Virus record (IMG/VR): IMGVR_UViG_2879731240_000003
Direction: 5' to 3' (one strand)
Source: a virus
Lineage: Duplodnaviria > Heunggongvirae > Uroviricota > Caudoviricetes
DNA: 29,012 bases
The number at the start of each line of letters is the position of its first letter. Within the stretch, counting starts at the first letter, position 1. Shown here piece by piece: positions 1-28,164 of the stretch. The translations under genes and the position numbers were made by a program. The notes beneath the pieces were generated by a model. The model searched no databases. It was not told where the DNA came from and saw only the letters and a list, made by a program, of their open reading frames with translations.

Positions 1-237
<237 letters not shown>

Positions 238-846
238 TGAACCGGTAACTCACGATGAGAAACCCAACAATCCCACCGGGTGTGACGGTGGAGAACCTGA
301 GCGGCAGTGACCTGCGGCATGCCCGCAGGGTGATGTAACCCGCTGACAACGGGGATTGAGGCGAGATCACTAAGCCGAGATGATCCTCAAGGTTAAGTAC
401 TGAAAGGCTGAAGAACATGAACCCGTTAATCCGCCTCTGTGGGTTGAAAACGTCACCACGGCCTACGTGATCTGACAGGCCGTGCAGGAGGAACTGGCAG
501 TGATACGTAAGCACTGCCGGTCGAAGGTGTTTTGACATGTATGCGAAACACCGGGGCAGCAGCGTCTATCACACTTGCGTTGCTGACTTCTGCCAACTTG
601 CGGCAAGCAAGGATAAAGAGTGCGACGGGCAGCCTCCTCAGTATGCCTGAGTCCAGGCAGGTAAACCGGGGAAGGTCAGCGACGGATGTTAAGGGGGCAT
701 GGCTCCGATGACGCGCTGGCTGGCGGAGCTTCCGTAGTAGTCCGCGATGGGGAAAGCCCATTACATGGCGAAGGGAAGCAGTTTGAATGTGTTTGCGACG
801 TGAATTAACTGACCTAACGAGGTGAAGACCTTTGATAATCAGCGAA

Positions 847-2355
847 ATGCAACGCAAGCTTGCCACATGGGCAGCCACCGATCCGTCCCTACGGATTCAA
901 CGGCTGCTGCGTCTGATAACACAACCAGAATGGCTGGCTGAAGCGGCGCGGATCACGCTTTCATCAAAGGGGGCCCATACCCCCGGCGTTGATGGCGTGA
1001 ACAAAACAATGCTACAGGCCAGACTGGCTGTTGAGCTGCAAATCCTCAGGGATGAATTACTCTCAGGCCACTACCAGCCCTTGCCCGCCAGACGGGTTTA
1101 CATCCCTAAAAGCAACGGCAAACTGCGACCACTGGGTATCCCCGCGTTGCGGGATCGTATTGTTCAGCGGGCCATGCTGATGGCGATGGAGCCGATATGG
1201 GAGAGTGATTTTCATACGCTCTCATATGGCTTCCGGCCTGAGCGCAGTGTCCACCACGCGATCCGCACGGTGAAATTACAGCTCACAGACTGTGGTGAAA
1301 CCCGGGGACGCTGGGTGATTGAAGGCGACCTGTCCAGTTACTTCGACACCGTACATCATCGACTGCTGATGAAGGCTGTACGCCGCAGGATCAGTGACGC
1401 ACGTTTCATGACTCTGCTGTGGAAAACCATCAAGGCGGGACATATCGATGTCGGTCTCTTTCGGGCGGCCAGTGAAGGTGTGCCACAGGGCGGTGTTATA
1501 TCGCCGCTATTATCGAACATCATGCTGAATGAGTTCGATCAATACCTGCATGAGCGCTACCTGAGCGGGAAAGCCAGAAAAGATCGGTGGTACTGGAATA
1601 ACAGTATCCAACGGGGCCGAAGTACGGCGGTCAGAGAAAACTGGCAGTGGAAACCCGCGGTGGCGTACTGCCGCTATGCCGATGATTTTGTCCTCATCGT
1701 CAAAGGCACCAAAGCACAGGCGGAAGCCATCAGGGAGGAGTGTCGGGGTGTGCTCGAAGGCAGTCTGAAACTCAGGCTGAACATGGATAAGACTAAAATC
1801 ACCCATGTTAATGACGGCTTTATCTTTCTGGGGCACAGGATCATTCGCAAACGCAGTCGTTATGGCGAGATGCGAGTGGTCTCAACGATCCCGCAGGAGA
1901 AAGCCAGAAACTTCGCCGCATCGCTGACAGCACTGTTATCAGGCAACTACAGTGAAAGCAAAGTCGATATGGCTGAACAACTCAACCGAAAACTGAAAGG
2001 CTGGGCCATGTTCTATCAGTTCGTTGATTTTAAGGCCAAAGTCTTCAGTTATATCGACCGTGTCGTGTTCTGGAAGCTGGCTCACTGGCTGGCCCGCAAA
2101 TACCGTACAGGTATCGCTTCCCTGATGAGGTGGTGGTGTAAATCACCGAAACCGGGTCAGAGCAAAACGTGGGTTTTATTTGGTAAAACCAATCACGGCA
2201 AGCTCAGCGGCGAAATACTGTACCGGTTGGTGGGGCAAGGCAAGAAGCTGTTCCGCTGGCGGCTACCCGAAGGTAATCCCTATCTGAGGACGGAGACCAG
2301 AAACACGTATACATCGCGCTTTACAGAAGTGGCAATGGCGTTCGCCAGCATTTAA
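847..2355 (+). CDS. Group II intron-encoded protein (reverse transcriptase / maturase); no obvious C-terminal endonuclease domain
   Basis: RT motifs including PLGIP..DRIVQ, PQGGVISPLLSNIMLNEFD and YCRYADDFVLIV (YADD); maturase/X-like region after the RT. ORF track starts at TTG 832; first ATG is 847. Confidence 0.9.
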   Translation: MQRKLATWAATDPSLRIQRLLRLITQPEWLAEAARITLSSKGAHTPGVDGVNKTMLQARLAVELQILRDELLSGHYQPLPARRVYIPKSNGKLRPLGIPALRDRIVQRAMLMAMEPIWESDFHTLSYGFRPERSVHHAIRTVKLQLTDCGETRGRWVIEGDLSSYFDTVHHRLLMKAVRRRISDARFMTLLWKTIKAGHIDVGLFRAASEGVPQGGVISPLLSNIMLNEFDQYLHERYLSGKARKDRWYWNNSIQRGRSTAVRENWQWKPAVAYCRYADDFVLIVKGTKAQAEAIREECRGVLEGSLKLRLNMDKTKITHVNDGFIFLGHRIIRKRSRYGEMRVVSTIPQEKARNFAASLTALLSGNYSESKVDMAEQLNRKLKGWAMFYQFVDFKAKVFSYIDRVVFWKLAHWLARKYRTGIASLMRWWCKSPKPGQSKTWVLFGKTNHGKLSGEILYRLVGQGKKLFRWRLPEGNPYLRTETRNTYTSRFTEVAMAFASI

Positions 2356-2360
2356 ATGGA

Positions 2361-2394
2361 GAGCCGGATGCGCTGAAAGGTGCACGTCCGGTTC
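2361..2394 (+). ncRNA. Group II intron domain V (catalytic hairpin)
   Basis: 34-nt hairpin beginning GAGC (AGC triad) with GAAA-type loop, about 50 nt before the intron 3' end; seen directly in the sequence. Confidence 0.75.
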
Positions 2395-2417
2395 GGGGAG
2401 GAGAGGCAGGGAAATAG

Positions 2418-2924
<507 letters not shown>

Positions 2925-2932
2925 CCACTTCA

Positions 2933-3096
2933 GAAGGCTTTGGATTACCGTCTGGTGATACGTGAATATACTCTCTTCCAACCATCCAGCATTCTTTCCG
3001 GGTCCGAAGAATTGTGCCTGGTTTGAGCCCGGTAATTGCGATTAGAACGCTTTCACAAACCCATTCATTGGGAGCCAGTTGAATCACATTGCCCAT
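2933..3096 (-). pseudogene. Hypothetical small gene whose 3' end is cut by the IS911-like insertion
   Basis: Minus-strand ORF MGNVIQLAPNEWVCESV..HVSPDGNPKPS preceded by a GAGGT ribosome-binding site; the frame runs into the IS right end at 2932 and only terminates inside IS sequence. Confidence 0.35.
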
Positions 3097-3104
3097 GCAT
3101 TACC

Positions 3105-3251
3105 TCACACAACACTCAGCCCACGGCAGTGGCACCAGACCTCAAACATTCGTTTCACAATTTCACGACAGTAGAAACCGTCAACATCTCGCGTCAGGTC
3201 GTAGTGGTTGCCGTAACGCTGGTGGACCCATAGCTCAAACGCTTTATTCAT
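3105..3251 (-). CDS. Small Cys/His-containing protein (48 aa), possible zinc-binding prophage protein
   Basis: My own translation (below the ORF-track size cutoff): MNKAFELWVHQRYGNHYDLTRDVDGFYCREIVKRMFEVWCHCRGLSVV, preceded by AGGAAG ribosome-binding site; four Cys/His in the C-terminal half. Confidence 0.4.
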   Translation of the reverse strand: MNKAFELWVHQRYGNHYDLTRDVDGFYCREIVKRMFEVWCHCRGLSVV

Positions 3252-3254
3252 TTT

Positions 3255-3497
3255 TTACTTCCTTTGCATTGCGCGTAATTTCTTCAGGTGCTTTTCTTGT
3301 TCTGTTTCAGCCAGAATCTTGTGATATTCCAGGTGGTCAATATGCTCGAACAGGCTACTGAATTCACCGATGCGTACTCGCCCGGTACGTCCGTCCATCC
3401 TCCGAAAGAACACTGAGTGCTCAGTACTGCGAGTAATTTCTACTGGGTATCCGGCTCTGTCTGTGTATATCTGCCCGCGTTGAATCAAAGCGAACAT
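3255..3497 (-). CDS. Hypothetical prophage protein (about 80 aa; alternative upstream start gives 92 aa)
   Basis: ORF track 3255..3533(-); internal ATG at 3497 gives MFALIQRGQIYTDRAGYPVEI..KHLKKLRAMQRK. No family recognised. Confidence 0.4.
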   Translation of the reverse strand: MFALIQRGQIYTDRAGYPVEITRSTEHSVFFRRMDGRTGRVRIGEFSSLFEHIDHLEYHKILAETEQEKHLKKLRAMQRK

Positions 3498-3501
3498 GTG
3501 G

Positions 3502-3585
3502 TTATCCCCATCGACAAATCGAGTACACAACAAACGCTACTGCGAATACCATCCCCAGAGTTACGATTGCATCAGGCCAGCTCAT
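3502..3585 (-). CDS. Very small hydrophobic peptide (27 aa), possible membrane peptide
   Basis: My own translation: MSWPDAIVTLGMVFAVAFVVYSICRWG with strong upstream CAGGAGG ribosome-binding site; sits between the clamp-like gene and the 80-aa ORF. Confidence 0.25.
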   Translation of the reverse strand: MSWPDAIVTLGMVFAVAFVVYSICRWG

Positions 3586-3620
3586 TGATTCACCTCCTGC
3601 GGCGTCCTGGTATTCGATTT

Positions 3621-4190
3621 TCATTCCGGATGCTCCTGAGCCACGTTGAAATCGCCATGATCACGACAAGGCATCACAACAAATTCAGGATTGCCATACA
3701 TTGAGTTGATGATGGAATCAAACTGAATTCTGACCGCTTGCCCGTCACCGGAGGGACGTAACTGGACGGGAATAAATTTACGCTCACGACCAAACATCTT
3801 CTCTGGATAACTCAGGTAACCCGCCTGGAGCACCGGGTGAGTACAGCGGTCAAACTTTTTCGGAATGATGCGATCCAAATCCGGAAAACAACCGTCCACC
3901 AGTTTAATGCCGGTAATGGACAGTCGTCGCTGAAACTGGTCGCGATGAACAGCGATCGGCTCTTTACTAAAAATCAGCTCTGTCGTTTCGGCTTTGGCCG
4001 GGACGCCCCCTTCGAACTGGACAATGATGTTTTTCTTCGTCCGGATGCCGTGAGCCATGCGCAGTGCCACGGAACCATTGGTTGCCTCAATATGTTTCGG
4101 CGTGATGTGAAGACCGTTCAGGTAATAACGAACGTCGTTTTTAGCAGCGCACACCAGAGCGGCGCGAATAAGTTTTGACTGGATGATCAT
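3621..4190 (-). CDS. Truncated beta sliding clamp (DnaN)-like protein, 189 aa
   Basis: Motifs NDVRYYLNGLHI and KLVDGCFPDLDRIIPK resemble E. coli DnaN QDVRYYLNGMLF and KLVDGRFPDYRRVLPK; C-terminus ..EFVVMPCRD resembles DnaN ..AYVVMPMRL (remembered sequence). About half the length of a real clamp. Start ATG overlaps the upstream stop (ATGA). Confidence 0.6.
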   Translation of the reverse strand: MIIQSKLIRAALVCAAKNDVRYYLNGLHITPKHIEATNGSVALRMAHGIRTKKNIIVQFEGGVPAKAETTELIFSKEPIAVHRDQFQRRLSITGIKLVDGCFPDLDRIIPKKFDRCTHPVLQAGYLSYPEKMFGRERKFIPVQLRPSGDGQAVRIQFDSIINSMYGNPEFVVMPCRDHGDFNVAQEHPE

Positions 4191-4936
4191 GCTTTATCCT
4201 CCCATCCGATCACCTGGAAAAGCCCCATCTTCGGGTGATACCAGCGTGTGCCGCGTGGGTCAGCCTCTGACATCATTTGGTGGAACGCCGCCATAAATGG
4301 CTCAAGCTCGACGATAGCCCTGCGAGACAACAGACCGTCCGGAGTCATGAATTCGTGGGTGTCTGTAGGAATTTGATATGCGTTCACCAGATTCCGACAC
4401 TTGGTGTCACTCATTCCACTTTTGGCTACCACCTGGCGGTAACCGACATATCCGGCGCGCATATTTCCGCGTTTGATGGTTTCCACCGCTTCTGTGACTG
4501 TTTCGAGCTGTTCTTCCACATGATTCAGGCGCTTCTGTTGACGAACAGCGTCGGCGGCTATCGCAGCGATCATCTCGATTTCCGTTAGCGGTGTGCGAGT
4601 GCGGAAGTAGCTGTTAACCAGTTCGCGCTGAACCTGCCAGGCAAGGGCGTCATTGAATGGCTTCGTCAACATCAGGTAACCTGATTCAAAAAGTACAATC
4701 CCCGATGGTGCAAATTTAGAGAATGTTCCTTCCGGGAGGTCCGTACGTATTACGTCCGCACCTAATTCGGCATAATCCACACCGCTGATGAAATGCTCAC
4801 GGTTTCGGTTGAATGCTGCACGCGCGGTTCCTTCCGGTCGCTGGTGGACTTCATCAATCATCGCCAGCGTCACAACACGCTGACCGCGATATTCGATTAC
4901 CGGAAACTGTTTGTTGTTGATGGTTACAGTATTCAT
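4187..4936 (-). CDS. Phage antirepressor-like protein (Bro-N/ORF6N/KilA-N-type N-terminal domain, uncharacterised C-terminal domain)
   Basis: Likely start MNTVTINNKQFPVIEYRGQRVVTLAMIDEV.. at 4936 with GGAG ribosome-binding site; the N-terminal pattern resembles ORF6N/Bro-N antirepressor domains (from memory, moderate). Confidence 0.5.
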   Translation of the reverse strand: MNTVTINNKQFPVIEYRGQRVVTLAMIDEVHQRPEGTARAAFNRNREHFISGVDYAELGADVIRTDLPEGTFSKFAPSGIVLFESGYLMLTKPFNDALAWQVQRELVNSYFRTRTPLTEIEMIAAIAADAVRQQKRLNHVEEQLETVTEAVETIKRGNMRAGYVGYRQVVAKSGMSDTKCRNLVNAYQIPTDTHEFMTPDGLLSRRAIVELEPFMAAFHQMMSEADPRGTRWYHPKMGLFQVIGWEDKA

Positions 4937-4979
4937 TTTTATCTCCAGACAGCCCGGCGTGTAATACCGGGCATATGTA

Positions 4980-5807
4980 TTACTTAACCTGAATAAATGG
5001 TGTGTTGGCACCGCTGGTCATGTATTGCGGCAGTGTACCGTTCCACTTGTTGATGGCTTCCAGCTCCATAACGTTTGGGTTCTGGCGCAGAGCTTCACCG
5101 CGTAAACGAATAGCATCGGCTTCGGCCTGGGCTTTTGTGCGAATCGCATCTGCCTGTCCGGCAGCTTCCGCGCGCAACATGTTGGCTTCCGCTTCGCGCT
5201 GTTTTACTTCCTGCTCGCATTGCAGGGTTTTCTGGTTCGCCGTGACTTTGGCATTAATGCTGTCGATAACAGTAGGCGGGTACTCCGGCTTACCCACATA
5301 TGAGAGGCTCATTACCTGAATACCGATGGGCGTCATTTCTTCCTGAATGTCTTTAAGAGCTGCATCCAGCAGCTCAGACTTGCCGCCGTCGATAAATTTG
5401 TCGGTGGTCATTTTGCTGGCCAGTCGGTTGAGTGCGTCGGCTATCTTCTGGCGCAGGTCGGTGTCGGTAATGTCGTCCACGCCTTTGCGGTAGGTCTGAA
5501 AGACTGTGGTAACTTTGGATGGATCAACTTTGTAGGCCACGCCGATGTGATAGCCGATGGTTGTACCGTCACTCATCTGGAAGCTGAATGGCTCATCGTA
5601 GGTCTTCATTTGTTTGAAGGTCGGGAAGATGTAAACCTCAGTGTTCCATCCCGTCCAGTAGCGCCCAACACCGACCACTTCTCCGACGCCTTTATCGTCG
5701 CCCAGTTTGTTTACCTTGATGCCAACATTACCAGGCTCAACGCGATCGCAACCGACAAGTCCGGTGGTCAGCAGAACAAGGGCTAAAGCAGGAATAACTT
5801 TTTTCAT
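4980..5807 (-). CDS. SPFH/band-7 (prohibitin/HflC-like) domain lipoprotein
   Basis: N-terminal signal with lipobox (MKKVIPALALVLLTTGLVGC); SPFH core (..IGIQVMSLSYVGKPEYP..) followed by Ala/Glu-rich coiled region (QREAEANMLRAEAAGQADAIRTKAQAEADAIRLRGEA) typical of HflK/C and YqiK-like proteins. Confidence 0.8.
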   Translation of the reverse strand: MKKVIPALALVLLTTGLVGCDRVEPGNVGIKVNKLGDDKGVGEVVGVGRYWTGWNTEVYIFPTFKQMKTYDEPFSFQMSDGTTIGYHIGVAYKVDPSKVTTVFQTYRKGVDDITDTDLRQKIADALNRLASKMTTDKFIDGGKSELLDAALKDIQEEMTPIGIQVMSLSYVGKPEYPPTVIDSINAKVTANQKTLQCEQEVKQREAEANMLRAEAAGQADAIRTKAQAEADAIRLRGEALRQNPNVMELEAINKWNGTLPQYMTSGANTPFIQVK

Positions 5808-5992
5808 CTTTTATCCTTAGAAAAAGAAAGACCCTTATAAATGGCATAAATGCAGGGCGGGGTCAGACACGCCAGAGCAAAGCCAGAAATCACTGCTACC
5901 GTATCCTTCATTGATATGAGGGCCGGAACGATTAATCCGTAAATACATGCGATAATTGCCAGTGATATAACTATTCTGAAATAAATGTTCAT
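5804..5992 (-). CDS. Small two-helix membrane protein, translationally coupled to the SPFH gene
   Basis: MNIYFRIVISLAIIACIYGLIVPALISMKDTVAVISGFALACLTPPCIYAIYKG..; strong CAGGAGGA ribosome-binding site; 4-nt overlap with the SPFH start. Confidence 0.5.
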   Translation of the reverse strand: MNIYFRIVISLAIIACIYGLIVPALISMKDTVAVISGFALACLTPPCIYAIYKGLSFSKDKR

Positions 5993-6304
5993 GGTCCTCC
6001 TGATGTATTCGGCTTGCCTTATTTAATTGCGTCATGGTTAATTTCGTTTACGTCAGAATGGTTTTGTTGCCATCAGTTCGTAATATCCGGCGCTCCATGT
6101 GTCATATTTTCTGAACCATTTTTCTGTATACTGTTTCCTGGCGATGAGTCTGCGCAGTCGTCTGATTGTTCGCTGGTGTGCGCGGGTATACTCTGTGGTT
6201 GATTCTCCACGTTTCCATATCTCATTCCCGTTGAAGATAAAACGCTTGTCAGGATGGCGTTGTGAGGTGTACTGGCAATAGCGGACACTACCATTTGTTC
6301 TTTT

Positions 6305-7123
6305 TTAAGCAGCCATCTGATGATATTTTTCCCTGAAGGCTGCCGGGGAGATATTCCCCAGACGAGAGTGACGACGCTGACGATTGTAGAAAATCTCAAT
6401 GTATTCCCGTATTACTGAGATGGCTTCATCCCGGTTATTAAAACGATAGTGGCTCAGGCTCTCATTTTTCAGCGTTCCCCAGAAGCTTTCCATCGGAGCG
6501 TTGTCGTAACAGTTACCTTTACGCGACATTGATGTTTTCAGACCAGACTGCTCCTGTATGACCCGGTAATCGTATGCGCAGTACTGTGAACCTCGATCAG
6601 AGTGGTGGATTAGCCCGGCAGGTGGGCGCTGGCTCCTGAGCGCCATAAACAGGGCTTTACCTGTCAGCTCTTTTGTCATGCGCTCTCCCATGGCGTAGCC
6701 GACAATTTCACACGTATAAACATCTTTGATGCCAGCGAGGTACAACCATCCCTCCTGTGTGGCAACATACGTCAGGTCCGCCACCCAGACCTGATTTGGT
6801 GCTGTAGGAGCGAACGTCTGGTTCAGCAGATTTGGCGCAACTGGCAGATTGTGGTTCGGGTTCGTAGTCGCTCTGAACTTGCGTTTCTGCTTACAGCGTA
6901 GCCTCAGCTCCTTACGAAGACGTGCCAGTCGGTCACGACCAACGATGATGCCATTCTCTGCCAGCTCCGTCTGGAGCCGCCGGGTTCCATATGTTTCGCG
7001 AGTGCGGATATGTGCCACCTTAATCTCCAGTTTTAGCCGCTCATCACTTTGTTTTCTGTCTGAGGGTTCATGCTGTACCCAGTTGTAATAACCGCTCCTG
7101 GATACACCAAATACCTGACACAT
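6305..7123 (-). CDS. IS600-like transposase OrfB (integrase core); made as an OrfAB fusion by -1 frameshift, so the true N-terminus lies upstream
   Basis: ..NQVWVADLTYVATQEGWLYLAGIKDVYT..HHSDRGSQYCAYDY..KGNCYDNAPMESFWGTLKNE.. (IS3-family DDE signature). Confidence 0.85.
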   Translation of the reverse strand: MCQVFGVSRSGYYNWVQHEPSDRKQSDERLKLEIKVAHIRTRETYGTRRLQTELAENGIIVGRDRLARLRKELRLRCKQKRKFRATTNPNHNLPVAPNLLNQTFAPTAPNQVWVADLTYVATQEGWLYLAGIKDVYTCEIVGYAMGERMTKELTGKALFMALRSQRPPAGLIHHSDRGSQYCAYDYRVIQEQSGLKTSMSRKGNCYDNAPMESFWGTLKNESLSHYRFNNRDEAISVIREYIEIFYNRQRRHSRLGNISPAAFREKYHQMAA

Positions 7124-7158
7124 CGCTTCAATGGGAAATTGTTGTCGCCATTGTTCGA

Positions 7159-7461
7159 TTAACGCGTATTTTTCAGCGACTCCTGTGCAAAATACGCTGT
7201 TGCTTTTTTTAATATATCTCGCTCAAGGCGAGCTTCATTTAACGCCTTACGCAGTTGCAGAATTTCAGATTCCAGTTCAGCCACCGTGCGGGAACCAGGA
7301 GTACCGAGCCCTTTTCTGGCGGCGGTAACCCATTGTCCTAAAGTGCCTTCAGGAAGAGATAATCGGGAAGCGCCTTCACTGATCGAAAGTTGATTTTCAA
7401 GAACCGTTCTGACAGCTTCGGCTTTGAACTCTTTAGAGTAACGTTGGGTTTTTCTGCTCAT
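7159..7461 (-). CDS. IS600-like transposase OrfA (helix-turn-helix / leucine zipper)
   Basis: MSRKTQRYSKEFKAEAVRTVLENQLSISEGASRLSLPEGTLGQWV..LESEILQLRKALNEARLERDILKKATAYFA; slippery AAAAAAG near its 3' end. Confidence 0.85.
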   Translation of the reverse strand: MSRKTQRYSKEFKAEAVRTVLENQLSISEGASRLSLPEGTLGQWVTAARKGLGTPGSRTVAELESEILQLRKALNEARLERDILKKATAYFAQESLKNTR

Positions 7462-7527
7462 TATTAGCTCCTTCTGATGCCATTCTATTTCAGGAAGGAG
7501 TGTCCGTTAAACTCAGGCTACCTCAAT

Positions 7528-7665
7528 ATGGTACCCGCGCTTCGGGAACTGATGCAGGCGAAGCATCGCGCACAGAAAGCAGTAGATGAGCTGGTGGACT
7601 GTGTGGCAGAGCTGGAAACCAGAGTCGGAAAGTTTGAAAAGCTGGTGCAGGAGGTGCTGCGCTGA
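7528..7665 (+). CDS. Small nin-region ORF (45 aa from the first ATG); possibly 5'-truncated by the IS600-like insertion
   Basis: MVPALRELMQAKHRAQKAVDELVDCVAELETRVGKFEKLVQEVLR; stop overlaps the rusA start (TGATG); the reading frame is open back into the IS end. Confidence 0.3.
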   Translation: MVPALRELMQAKHRAQKAVDELVDCVAELETRVGKFEKLVQEVLR

Positions 7666-8024
7666 TGCGCCATGAGTTTATTTTACCTTATCCGCCGACG
7701 GTGAATACTTACTGGCGACGTCGTGGCAGCACATATTTTGTATCAAAAGCCGGTGAGCGTTATCGCCGGGATGTGGCGCTTATTGTCCGTCAGCAGCGAC
7801 TGAAATTAAGCCTGTCCGGAAGACTGGCGATAAAGATTATTGCAGAGCCACCGGATAAGCGGCGTCGTGACCTGGACAATATCCTGAAAGCACCACTGGA
7901 TGCACTGACACATGCGGGGTTGCTTATCGACGACGAGCAGTTTGATGAAACCAATATTGTGCGCGGACTGCCTGTTCCTGGTGGTCGGTTGGGGATAAAA
8001 ATCACAGAGCTGGAGTGTGCATGA
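7665..8024 (+). CDS. rusA: Holliday junction resolvase RusA (lambdoid nin-region endonuclease)
   Basis: 119 aa; LPYPPTVNTYWRRRG..KRRRDLDNILKAPLDALTHAGLLIDDEQ..GGRLGIKITEL matches the RusA family pattern. Confidence 0.9.
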   Translation: MRHEFILPYPPTVNTYWRRRGSTYFVSKAGERYRRDVALIVRQQRLKLSLSGRLAIKIIAEPPDKRRRDLDNILKAPLDALTHAGLLIDDEQFDETNIVRGLPVPGGRLGIKITELECA

Positions 8025-8710
8025 ATAACCAGTATTTACAGTTTGTTCGTGAGCAGCTCATTATCGCCACCGCTGATTTGAGTGGGGCGACAAAAGGTCA
8101 GCTTGAAGCCTGGCAGGAGAATGCCATGTTCGATACAGGGCGTTACAGGCGTAAAAAAATCCGGTACCGCGATGAGGTGACCGGAAAAATGATAACGCGG
8201 GATAATCCACCAATCCCGGGAAAACAATCACTGGCGAAGGGGGCGTCAATTCCTCTGGTCAGTCAGGTTGCGTTTTCGACATCATCGTGGCGGCGGGCTG
8301 TTCTGTCTCTTGAAGAGCACTATAAAGCCTGGTTGTTGTGGTGTTACAGCGGAAGTATTTGCTGGGAGTATCAGATCACCATAACCCACTGGGCGTGGGA
8401 AGAGTTTAAGGCTCATTCTGGCACTAGGAAAATTGCAGAGAAAACACAGGAACGCCTGAAAAAATTAATCTGGCTGGCGGCGCAGGCGGTAAAAGCAGAA
8501 CTTTTTGGTGGGGAAGGTTATGAATATCAGGAGCTGGCATTACTGGCGGGAGTAACAACCAAAAACTGGTCCAAAACATTTACTGGTCACTGGGTTGTAA
8601 TGAAACACATTTTTCACCGACTGGATAGTGAGGCTTTATTGTTTGTGATGAGAACACGTTCAGAACAAAAAGCGGCATTTTCAAAGCAAAGTATTGCAAA
8701 AGTAGATTAA
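8021..8710 (+). CDS. Hypothetical protein in the position of the late-gene antiterminator Q (assignment positional only)
   Basis: 229 aa from ATG 8021 (overlaps rusA stop, ATGA); sits between rusA and a terminator-like hairpin plus tRNA cluster, as Q does in lambdoid phages. I do not recognise the sequence itself. Confidence 0.35.
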   Translation: MNNQYLQFVREQLIIATADLSGATKGQLEAWQENAMFDTGRYRRKKIRYRDEVTGKMITRDNPPIPGKQSLAKGASIPLVSQVAFSTSSWRRAVLSLEEHYKAWLLWCYSGSICWEYQITITHWAWEEFKAHSGTRKIAEKTQERLKKLIWLAAQAVKAELFGGEGYEYQELALLAGVTTKNWSKTFTGHWVVMKHIFHRLDSEALLFVMRTRSEQKAAFSKQSIAKVD

Positions 8711-8776
8711 AAGGCATATATCTCATGCAAATCTGATACTTTGCCGATTTTGTACGCGATGGTAAAGTAAGCAAAA

Positions 8777-8798
8777 CCCGCCGCCGAGCGGTTTTTTT
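8777..8798 (+). terminator. Candidate intrinsic terminator downstream of the Q-position gene (tR'-like position)
   Basis: Short GC hairpin CCGCCGCCGAGCGG followed by T7 (..GCGGTTTTTTTAT). The stem is short, so this is tentative. Confidence 0.4.
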
Positions 8799-8886
8799 AT
8801 GCCTGAAAAATGGCACAGGACGTTAAACGTGCTGGTGGTCAGATGAGTTTGCAGATGTGATGACATATGGTTATTATTCTGCCTCC

Positions 8887-26412: not shown

Positions 26413-28164
26413 TTATGAATGGTGCAGTTGTGAGCCGTTTTCAGGCAATCGCAGGGCCAGTACCTCGTCAGTCAGCTGACGGTAAATCTGCTGTTCAGTC
26501 TCACGCATCACCTGTGCACCGGCTTCCCTCTCCGCATCCGCATCACCGCTCAGACCTGATGCTTTCAGCCGGTCAGCCACCCTCTGAGGGTACTCATTCT
26601 CCAGCATCTCATATTTCTGCTCTTCTGCCTGCGCCCAGCGGTCAGCTTCCGTACGCTTCAGTACAGCATGCCATGGTCCCCAGAGGGAGAACCAGTCCGT
26701 AAATTCATTCTCTTCACGGCTTCTGACCATGGCTTCGGCAGTGCGGAGGTCATTTGCTGTCACTCCCGACACGCCATAGAAACGCATTTCCTTCACGGCA
26801 GTGGAGAGCTGAAGTTTCTCTGCGAGCATGGTCTGGAAGGCCAGGTAGACTTCTATCTCATCCACAAAATGGAGAGTTCTGACTTTATCCCGGGCAATAT
26901 CCTCCAGAATTTCGAGGCGGAACATTTCCCTGCCCAGGGAGAGCAGAGCGCCGGTATCATTATCGAAAAGGCCTTCTGATGCCTGATGGACCAGGAGGGT
27001 TTTCCGGAGATTGTTCCATGTGAGCGCGACACGGTCCTCACAGCTCTCAGTGGCATCAGCAGCAACAGCGAAAGACTGCTGTCGAAGCTCCGCAGAGGCA
27101 CTGAGTTTTTCCAGCCATGCAGCGACCTGTTCACGGAATCCGGAGGTATTGCGTGCAGAGACGGTATCGGAAAGGCGGTCAAGGAACGCGGAAAAGGTGT
27201 TGGCGTGCTCTTCATGTTCAAAAGCATGCCATATCTGTGATACATCAGATTGTTTGTTTTCCGGGAACCATGCTGTCACGGCATCAGCCAGGGGGCGATG
27301 GAGTGTATTCTGTTGTCCGTCACTCATGGAGAAGTAAATCTGCGGGCCGTGGTAGTCCGGCGAAGATGTTAATCTTTGCAGGGATTGCAGAGCATGGGAT
27401 GACAATGGGTTATCACTAATATCTATTGAACATTCATTCCTCAGATTAAGAATGCTTTCCGGGATATGACTTATCTGATTTATGTCAAAATAACCGTTCC
27501 TTAAATTTTCCGGCAGGTATGGAATATCGGTTAACATATTGTCGATTGCCCATATGGAGTGAATGTTGTGAGGTAGAGGGGGGAGTTCACTAAGAAGATT
27601 CCCTATTGCGCTAATCTCTTGTAAAGAAAATGGTAAAGGTGGTAAAACTGCCAGCCCATTACATGATACATCTAATGTTTCCAGTAGTTCTGGTAAAACA
27701 GGAAGAGAACATAATTGATTATTTGAGACATGAAGCTCCTTCAAAGATATGGGGAGTGTGGGTAGTGTGATTAGTTGATTGTGGGACGCATTCAATAATT
27801 TAAGTCCTTGAGGCAAAGCAGGCAGTTCAATAAGTCTGTTATAGCTGACATTAAGTTGTGTAAGGGACGCAGGCAATGGGGAGATTAAGCTTAAATTATT
27901 TTTACTTATATTAATTGATTTAATTCCCGGGGGGATTTCAGGTAATGTTGTCAGGCCTAATTCAGACAAGTCCAGGTTCGTCTCTTGGTTTTGTAGACAT
28001 GATACTAGTCGCTGAAAAGCGATGTCTCGTTGTTCTTCTTGTATGCGGTTATTTTTCCATTCAGTCCAATGGGTTAGATAATTTTCATATGCGCGGCTAG
28101 TGTCGATTGAATAAGTGGAGAACGAATTTGAAATTAATCTGTGATTGTTATTTGTCGGGAGCAT
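26413..28164 (-). CDS. ipaH: IpaH-family type III secreted effector: N-terminal leucine-rich repeats plus C-terminal NEL-type E3 ubiquitin ligase domain
   Basis: 583 aa; N-terminus MLPTNNN..; about nine 20-residue LRRs (L..LP.LP..L..L.VS.N.L); C-terminal domain with the catalytic CEDR motif (..ADATESCEDRVALTWNNLRK..) matching Shigella IpaH proteins from memory. Confidence 0.95.
   Translation of the reverse strand: MLPTNNNHRLISNSFSTYSIDTSRAYENYLTHWTEWKNNRIQEEQRDIAFQRLVSCLQNQETNLDLSELGLTTLPEIPPGIKSINISKNNLSLISPLPASLTQLNVSYNRLIELPALPQGLKLLNASHNQLITLPTLPISLKELHVSNNQLCSLPVLPELLETLDVSCNGLAVLPPLPFSLQEISAIGNLLSELPPLPHNIHSIWAIDNMLTDIPYLPENLRNGYFDINQISHIPESILNLRNECSIDISDNPLSSHALQSLQRLTSSPDYHGPQIYFSMSDGQQNTLHRPLADAVTAWFPENKQSDVSQIWHAFEHEEHANTFSAFLDRLSDTVSARNTSGFREQVAAWLEKLSASAELRQQSFAVAADATESCEDRVALTWNNLRKTLLVHQASEGLFDNDTGALLSLGREMFRLEILEDIARDKVRTLHFVDEIEVYLAFQTMLAEKLQLSTAVKEMRFYGVSGVTANDLRTAEAMVRSREENEFTDWFSLWGPWHAVLKRTEADRWAQAEEQKYEMLENEYPQRVADRLKASGLSGDADAEREAGAQVMRETEQQIYRQLTDEVLALRLPENGSQLHHS
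27414..27996 (-). repeat. Tandem degenerate roughly 60-bp repeats encoding the IpaH leucine-rich repeats
   Basis: Periodic LRR units in the translation and a visibly AT-rich periodic DNA segment. Confidence 0.6.

Follow-up and report, generated by a model that had tools for sequence, protein, structure and literature searches.

An insertion sequence-bracketed gene array in a Shigella ipaH prophage is probably a remnant of a lambdoid early-left operon

Is a tightly packed array of small prophage genes a functional system in its own right, or a piece of an ordinary phage operon? This question is raised by positions 2933..5992 of the viral record IMGVR_UViG_2879731240_000003, a caudoviral sequence of 29,012 nucleotides whose full length is referred to here as the window. 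An earlier note on this DNA had described eight co-directional minus-strand genes in this region as tightly packed and partly translationally coupled, and had proposed them as a candidate novel prophage-encoded system, with superinfection exclusion, phage defence or host replication takeover as purely conjectural roles. Listing of open reading frames (ORFs) recovered all eight genes, which in the order of transcription encode a small membrane protein (Mem62), an SPFH lipoprotein, an ORF6N antirepressor-like (Ant-like) protein, a DnaN-like protein that we term the mini-clamp, a small hydrophobic ORF, a DUF4222 protein, a 48-amino-acid (48-aa) protein and an interrupted gene. Four-nucleotide overlaps of the ATGA type were found at three junctions (mem62/SPFH, ORF6N/clamp and clamp/small ORF) and the gaps at the remaining junctions are 3-43 nt. 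The two bracketing insertion sequences were also recovered, IS911 ending at 2932 and IS600 starting at 6264, and a ninth gene fragment, the remnant of a phrog_1886 gene, occupies 6053..6263. The comparisons described below make it very probable that this block derives from a phiP27-like lambdoid prophage of the kind normally integrated at yecE, in which it formed the part of the early-left (pL-type) operon nearest to xis, and that it persists as a decayed mosaic remnant rather than as one machine.

Window positions 2933..6263 are collinear with prophage DNA of E. coli STEC799 (locus L001, 9001..12331) at 93.8% identity, and the complete block was found in 38 of 5,426 complete E. coli genomes (STEC799 and 37 more). 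In intact relatives (L001, L002 and L183) the gene order runs from a helix-turn-helix (HTH)/LexA-type repressor through small hypothetical genes to the block, xis and int; the block genes share the strand of xis and int, and the prophage adjoins yecE/DUF72. The Stx2e phage phiP27 has the order int-xis-L03-L04-L05(SPFH) at the equivalent position. It is this collinearity with intact prophages, together with the phiP27 gene order, that leads us to read the block as the part of a lambdoid early-left operon closest to xis. The early-left genes of phiP27 (L01 int, L02 xis, L03, L04 and the L05 lipoprotein) share with the block the same excisionase family, the DUF4222 and 48-aa genes and the SPFH cassette, and gene order and orientation relative to xis-int match in phiP27 and related yecE prophages. 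However, phiP27 does not contain the insert of ORF6N, mini-clamp and small ORF that the block carries, whereas the window has no int, no xis 3' end and nothing upstream of the 130-aa phrog_1886 gene. The pL operon of phage lambda is a long leftward operon of small, non-essential mosaic genes that ends at xis-int and is expressed on induction or infection. The block resembles its accessory region ('b/ea', sieB, cIII, kil) in position and transcription logic, but no sequence homology between the lambda pL genes and the block genes was detected in any search made. In the intact relatives, leftward transcription would start at the immunity region, cross the small accessory genes and continue into xis and int, with the ATGA overlaps likely to couple translation of genes inside modules. 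The reading of the array as uncharacterised accessory prophage genes that are predicted to be co-transcribed is supported.

We scored the co-occurrence of all eight proteins, with strand and position constraints, in two sets of 80 viral loci, one retrieved with the DnaN-like protein as seed and the other with the SPFH protein; the sets comprise the 80 most similar of 137 and 403 matches. Wherever the SPFH gene occurs in these viral loci, 107 in all, mem62 lies next to it. ORF6N, clamp and small ORF occur in 18 of the 80 SPFH-seeded loci, always as a trio, and the other 62 have neither ORF6N nor clamp; conversely, the SPFH cassette is present in 27 of the 80 clamp-seeded loci and absent from 53. 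Within the complete E. coli genomes the SPFH cassette was found in 716, the clamp in 60 and the whole block, as noted, in 38, and about half of the cassette copies are on plasmids. Although the fractions are approximate, the block as judged from these comparisons clearly dissociates into modules. Three exchangeable modules may be distinguished, namely the membrane cassette, the Ant-like gene with the mini-clamp, and the DUF4222 and 48-aa genes with xis, and the block is in this respect a module mosaic of the kind usual for lambdoid early regions. The proposal of one novel eight-gene system is not supported by these counts. Among the outcomes that the earlier note had itself named as telling against it is a lack of co-occurrence of the genes elsewhere, which is largely what the counts show; another was a match to a well-characterised lambdoid early-left operon with known functions, and the block is the end of a lambdoid early-left operon. 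The impression that the combination is not a recognised system nevertheless stands: a search of PADLOC-DB v2 with the eight proteins gave no hits at E<=0.1, the NCBIfam models produced sub-threshold matches only, to HflK/C and to DnaN, and the literature searched contained no paper characterising the block genes and nothing specific on a prophage SPFH lipoprotein, on SPFH proteins in defence or exclusion, or on DnaN-like phage proteins.

Overall, the window is 99.9% identical to S. flexneri SFBU1023 and contains RusA, Q, four tRNAs, an IS110-family transposase, tail genes and ipaH, while immunity, replication, lysis and head genes were not found in the window annotation; by gene content, it is a decayed Shigella ipaH prophage. 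At the upstream end of the block, IS600 has taken out the upstream genes together with the immunity region and the promoter, so that the operon is beheaded. Everything upstream of 6263 has been replaced by IS600, and cloning the block with its native promoter, as had been suggested, is therefore impossible from this locus. The phrog_1886 gene cut at this boundary is intact in L001 (12121..12513). In the same operon of the intact relatives, a gene resembling ParE-family toxins lies upstream (L001 12510..12728) and is gone from the window; several further small hypothetical genes upstream of the ParE-like gene region are likewise absent from it.

At the downstream end, IS911 has clipped xis and eliminated int. 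The gene that had been described as cut by IS911 is indeed cut and can now be named as the excisionase gene (DUF1233, E=7e-23, 80.5 bits versus 22; phrog_539, 1.3e-27). Of its 78 codons 54 remain, followed by a tail of 11 codons supplied by the terminal repeat of IS911; a full-length xis beside an integrase gene does not occur in the window, where int is absent and IS911 is in its place. Although the earlier note saw no structural, lysis or core replication gene in the block, the excisionase does belong to a core integration/excision module. The IS911 copy contains a group II intron (176..2445, plus strand, 2270 bp) with a reverse transcriptase/maturase ORF at 832..2355 and an Rfam Intron_gpII domain at 2359..2445, whereas the corresponding IS911 in SFBU1023 is intron-free. 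The SFBU1023 copy of the block has acquired an IS1, flanked by a 9-bp target duplication, precisely where mem62 meets the SPFH gene (L168 5212..5991, corresponding to window 5808..5816), which is an independent, ongoing decay of the block.

An internal deletion has removed the gene that usually follows the mini-clamp. In most loci the gene overlapping the clamp stop codon encodes a 74-aa phrog_1001 protein beginning MKIEYQDYGAV, of which the window keeps the first 7 codons only. At 3604 these 7 codons run into a sequence whose counterpart in a relative belongs to the 3' end of a DUF551 gene located upstream of DUF4222, and the 40-aa reading of the small ORF is therefore a deletion chimera. The alternative 27-aa reading (3502..3585), the hydrophobic peptide originally proposed, is backed by its own perfect AGGAGGTGA Shine-Dalgarno sequence and by the occurrence of the same ORF in this relative, which does not have the deletion.

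A crude consensus search of both strands of 2800..6400 returned no sigma-70-like promoters, compared with 3.6 expected by chance, which is consistent with an operon that has no promoters of its own inside the block and is read from a repressor-controlled one upstream. Terminator-like hits in the block region were at chance level (6 versus 3.9 expected) and gave no moron-type boundary, and an Rfam scan of 1..9500 detected tRNAs and the group II intron only, with no RNA element in the block. The array may thus be a decaying and probably poorly expressed relic, which would be transcribed only by read-through from the co-directional IS600.

Table 1. Features of the block and its flanks (window coordinates). 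The outer end of IS600 is placed from the known length of this element.
Feature	Position	Strand	Basis or remark
IS911 copy, split by group II intron 176..2445; left boundary	1..2932	+	Window comparison, Rfam
Excisionase (DUF1233, phrog_539), IS911-truncated	2899..3096; native codons 1-54 = 2933..3096	-	Pfam, PHROG
48-aa protein, phrog_3871	3105..3251	-	PHROG match; usual place immediately upstream of xis
DUF4222 protein, 80 aa, phrog_285	3255..3497	-	Pfam 1.8e-15; PHROG 1.7e-34
Small hydrophobic ORF	3502..3624 (40 aa) or 3502..3585 (27 aa)	-	ORF and relatives
Mini-clamp (DnaN-like), 189 aa: DnaN domain II, linker and C-terminal half of domain III	3621..4190	-	AlphaFold2 (AF2), Foldseek, family profile
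ORF6N Ant-like protein, 249 aa	4187..4936	-	Pfam ORF6N 2e-12; anti-repressor PHROGs
SPFH/Band_7 lipoprotein, 275 aa	4980..5807	-	Pfam Band_7 6e-31; phrog_200 6e-114
Mem62, 62-aa membrane protein, hairpin of two transmembrane (TM) segments, phrog_1130	5804..5992	-	ORF and PHROG match
phrog_1886 gene remnant, C-terminal 70 codons of 130 aa	6053..6263	-	PHROG match and L001 alignment; 5' side cut by IS600
IS600, right boundary; orfA 7159..7461, orfB 6305..7123	6264..~7527	-	Same direction as block

Elsewhere in the window, four tRNA genes (Met, Arg-tct, Thr and Gly) follow the Q antiterminator gene within 8887..11092. Lysis and head genes would be expected next, but their place is taken by the IS110-family transposase (9896..11092), which immediately precedes FI, Z and the tail genes. 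An ipaH-type effector gene with LRR_TTSS and NEL E3 ligase domains (26413..28164, minus strand) lies at the far end of the remnant and marks the Shigella ipaH island.

The DnaN-like gene of the block had been taken for a truncated one, but its product is a full-length member of a family of short proteins. The AF2 model of the mini-clamp (pLDDT 89.5, pTM 0.85) has only DnaN beta clamps among its top PDB matches in Foldseek, with probability 1.0 to many chains, and the family profile covers, in E. coli numbering, DnaN residues 136-291, which comprise domain II and the linker, as well as 316-365 from the C-terminal half of domain III, while domain I and residues ~253-315 are skipped. The protein is not a complete DnaN, that is, a three-domain protomer of ~366 aa that forms a head-to-tail dimeric ring: it has 189 aa as opposed to 366, and scores 21 bits with TIGR00663 versus a cut-off of 138. 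Since domain I and the region equivalent to ~253-315 are missing, a head-to-tail dimeric ring is not expected. A family search retrieved 7,215 cluster representatives at E<=0.001, some of which may be genuine DnaN clamps; apart from a few shorter fragments, the top 150 matches are nearly all 170-215 aa in length. Among sequenced phages, 217 carry a homologue, and most of these are virulent siphoviruses.

The mini-clamp gives a full-length match to phrog_3007 (5.9e-65, residues 1-179). This family includes short phage proteins annotated as 'DNA polymerase III beta / beta clamp domain', for example in Shigella phage DS8, Salmonella phage Pu29 and Pantoea phage LIET2, and BFVD models of 178-209 aa have TM-scores of 0.70-0.81 to the mini-clamp. 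The members from virulent phages, a family known from annotation only, are just 28-33% identical to the window protein, and in contrast to these the window gene is located in a temperate early-left region, downstream of an Ant-like gene. Distant mini-clamps are found in replication or nin-type regions of unrelated phages and have no ORF6N neighbour, while in enterobacterial prophages the gene typically lies between an Ant-like gene upstream and the 74-aa gene downstream. The PHROG label of phrog_3007, RusA resolvase, was considered and is wrong, as the fold resembles that of DnaN and Pfam gives no RusA match. As 'RusA-like Holliday junction resolvase', the label has spread to many phage GenBank records, such as those of Skarpretter, Serratia Eta and Klebsiella ZCKP8; RusA proper of the window is encoded at 7665..8024.

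Across 142 members with a median identity of 28%, the most conserved positions are R21, Y23, L24, G26, T37, G39, H40, P103, Y125, M173, P174 and R176, which align with DnaN R152, Y154, L155, G157, T172, G174, H175, P242, Y323, M362, P363 and R365. Loop II of DnaN, a DNA-contacting segment, spans residues 148-154 (PMC5042465), and H175, N320, M362 and P363 are in subsite 2 of the cleft (PMC6511837). The most conserved residues of the mini-clamp family coincide with the partner-binding cleft and loop II of DnaN. The remaining conserved positions are assigned to the cleft on the basis of published peptide complexes. In the window protein, the DVRYYLNG loop II is identical to that of DnaN, and the cleft residues T172/G174/(H175), P242/R246, Y323 and the C-terminal VVMPxR are conserved. 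The position equivalent to H175 (codon 40, window 4071..4073) is His in 88% of the 142 members but Ser in the window, and in the close E. coli/Shigella lineage it is S, F or C. This variation at cleft residue 40 could reflect relaxed or diversifying selection. Relative to its E. coli orthologue the window gene has 8 synonymous and 7 non-synonymous differences, a count that we did not use.

The mini-clamp keeps the partner-binding cleft of DnaN without domain I or the dimer-interface half of domain III, and could bind proteins that carry clamp-binding motifs, diverting or recruiting host replication and repair factors. We tentatively suggest, as one possibility among others, that mini-clamps are soluble decoys or adaptors for such proteins (Pol III alpha/delta, Hda, Pol II/IV/V, MutS/L) that have shed the ring-forming parts of the clamp, which would be a novel phage strategy for rewiring replication, repair or initiation control in the host. 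Precedents for phage early or regulatory proteins that work through the partner network of the beta clamp are MuC of phage Mu and Gp168 of Staphylococcus phage Twort (PMC12867686). By this analogy the direction would be reversed, since MuC and Gp168 bind the host clamp whereas the mini-clamp is a clamp fragment that would bind the partners of the clamp; PDB 7evp appears among the Foldseek matches of the mini-clamp.

Somewhat less likely is that the mini-clamp is a genuine processivity factor, which oligomerises, for example by pairing of half-domains, into a closed DNA-encircling ring that serves a polymerase in phage replication. The annotation of virulent-siphovirus homologues as 'DNA polymerase III beta subunit' or 'DNA clamp protein' is in its favour, as is the position of metagenomic relatives among early genes, with a DnaB-type helicase gene a few genes upstream in one case, and the conservation of loop II, which in DnaN contacts DNA (PMC5042465). 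Against these observations, the protein has neither domain I nor the first half of domain III, the part that carries the dimer interface in DnaN, and AF2 gives a compact monomer at the pTM noted above. In addition, the lambdoid prophage gene is located in the early-left accessory region near Ant-like genes rather than in the replication module, and no clamp loader is encoded nearby. We consequently prefer the decoy or adaptor role, at the tentative level stated.

The gene immediately upstream, whose stop codon overlaps the mini-clamp start, encodes a protein with an ORF6N (KilA-N-type) N-domain and a shuffled C-domain (phrog_6610). It belongs to the ORF6N family by score (47.6 bits versus a gathering score of 27.8; phrog_1726, 2e-69), and 'anti-repressor' is an annotation label only. 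Its C-terminal ~100 residues (4187..4594; P0088-P0198) form a domain that is found, at 76-92% identity, behind either ORF6N or Rha N-domains in a great many E. coli prophages; upstream of other mini-clamps, Rha N-domains are followed by a more diverged version with a conserved W/F-x-HP-x-x-G-x-F at its end. No fold was assigned to this C-domain, for which the AF2 model has a pLDDT of 79.5 and the best Foldseek match, to the DnaD N-domain and other winged helices, is not significant (E=0.09). In enterobacterial prophages the clamp is almost always preceded by an Ant-like gene with an ORF6N, Rha or BRO-N N-domain, most of which share the C-domain. An obligate pairing of ORF6N with the mini-clamp was considered and rejected, as the Ant-like N-domain varies and distant phages have no such neighbour. 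The C-terminus of the window protein carries HPKMGLF, which resembles QLGLF of Pol II. As a clamp-binding motif this is a weak lead only: related proteins have HPEFGGF or HPAVGRF without the Leu anchor, and in the AF2 model the segment is a beta-strand of a folded domain.

The membrane cassette consists of mem62 and the SPFH gene, the stop codon of the former overlapping the start of the latter by 4 nt. The SPFH protein is a member of the SPFH/Band 7 superfamily (Band_7, 108.2 bits versus a Pfam cut-off of 23.6) and is 96.7% identical to phiP27 L05. It has a signal peptide with the lipobox LVGC, an Asp at +2 and an HflK-like coiled-coil C-terminal part, and its sequence-detectable solved relatives are HflK chains only, aligned over the helical region. 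Like HflK/HflC, QmcA and YqiK, it has a Band_7 domain followed by an Ala/Glu-rich helical region, which aligns with HflK 180-307, and it is predicted to share with HflK/C a location on the periplasmic face of the inner membrane. However, HflK/C are anchored by an N-terminal TM helix whereas the phage protein would be anchored by a lipid, and the equivalog level of HflK/HflC is not reached (TIGR01932/01933, 22-24 bits versus cut-offs of 134-159). The presence of a small membrane partner encoded alongside is reminiscent of SPFH-NfeD operons, but the partner in these carries an NfeD/OB-fold domain that the Mem62 hairpin does not have; Mem62 gave no NfeD Pfam match and has two TM segments only in its 62 aa, so this is not an SPFH-NfeD operon.

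Beyond lambdoid phages, the cassette was found in the P2-like phage P88, the HK97-like phage Fraca and P1-like phages or phage-plasmids, with the partner overlapping by 4 nt, and in Salmonella, Pantoea, Kluyvera, Yersinia, Lelliottia and Chimaeribacter, down to 54% identity. Homologues of the SPFH lipoprotein are present in 491 phage records, including those of virulent, jumbo and archaeal viruses, and in P88 the cassette is inside an early operon. Occurrence in early lytic operons and homologues in strictly virulent phages together point to a role in lytic development rather than in lysogenic conversion. On the basis of homology, the SPFH lipoprotein may oligomerise during lytic growth into an HflK/C-like, periplasm-facing scaffold of the inner membrane, around or beside Mem62.

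A different explanation is that one or more cassettes of the block, most plausibly mem62 with the SPFH gene, have been kept by selection in Shigella for lysogenic conversion (envelope, virulence or phage exclusion), expressed through read-through from IS600. The seven complete ORFs are intact in a prophage riddled with insertion sequences, the IS600 orfAB genes are co-directional with the block, and phrog_1130 is filed under 'moron/host takeover'. Moreover, a prophage-island HflK/C-like SPFH protein of Pasteurella multocida, which may or may not be homologous to that of the block, is reported to be a virulence factor that is released in outer-membrane vesicles and signals through TLR1/2 (PMC9872710). 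We regard this explanation as improbable: the IS1 between mem62 and the SPFH gene in SFBU1023 speaks against the cassette being under strong selection in Shigella, the crude scan of 2800..6400 found no internal promoter-like site, and elsewhere the cassette lies in early lytic operons, with homologues common in strictly virulent phages. As for a single co-functional system of eight genes for superinfection exclusion, defence or host takeover, the tight packing with three ATGA overlaps, the recurrence of the complete block in 38 E. coli genomes and the lack of a known function for most products speak in its favour, but it has very little probability, since such packing is the norm in lambdoid early operons, the recurrences represent one prophage lineage at one attachment site, one gene is an excisionase, PADLOC gave no hits and the separation of the modules elsewhere (62/80 and 53/80 loci; 716 versus 60 E. 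coli genomes) has already largely refuted it.

The remnant reading has itself to be weighed against several observations. The intactness of all seven complete ORFs amid heavy insertion sequence activity could mean selection in Shigella and not recent decay, and the promoter evidence for a relic comes from a crude consensus scan. The loci scored for co-occurrence were not dereplicated, which is what makes the fractions approximate; the roles of cassette and mini-clamp are proposed from homology only; and the window mini-clamp has Ser in place of the cleft residue H175. We nevertheless consider a decayed early-left remnant very probable.

The novel-system reading is thus not supported, and the block is better described as a beheaded, partly deleted early-left remnant made up of independently mobile accessory modules. 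As an ordinary decaying piece of an early-left operon, it shows how the tight packing of phage operons can mimic a 'system'. Among its parts, the mini-clamp family merits follow-up first and the SPFH cassette to a lesser degree. The cassette is a portable two-gene membrane unit that moves among lambdoid, HK97-, P2- and P1-like phages. The mini-clamp family is large and widely mislabelled as 'RusA-like resolvase' or 'DNA pol III beta'; if its members do titrate or recruit clamp-binding proteins, they would represent a new class of phage modulators of host replication and repair, and would also provide a compact tool for probing the clamp interaction network.

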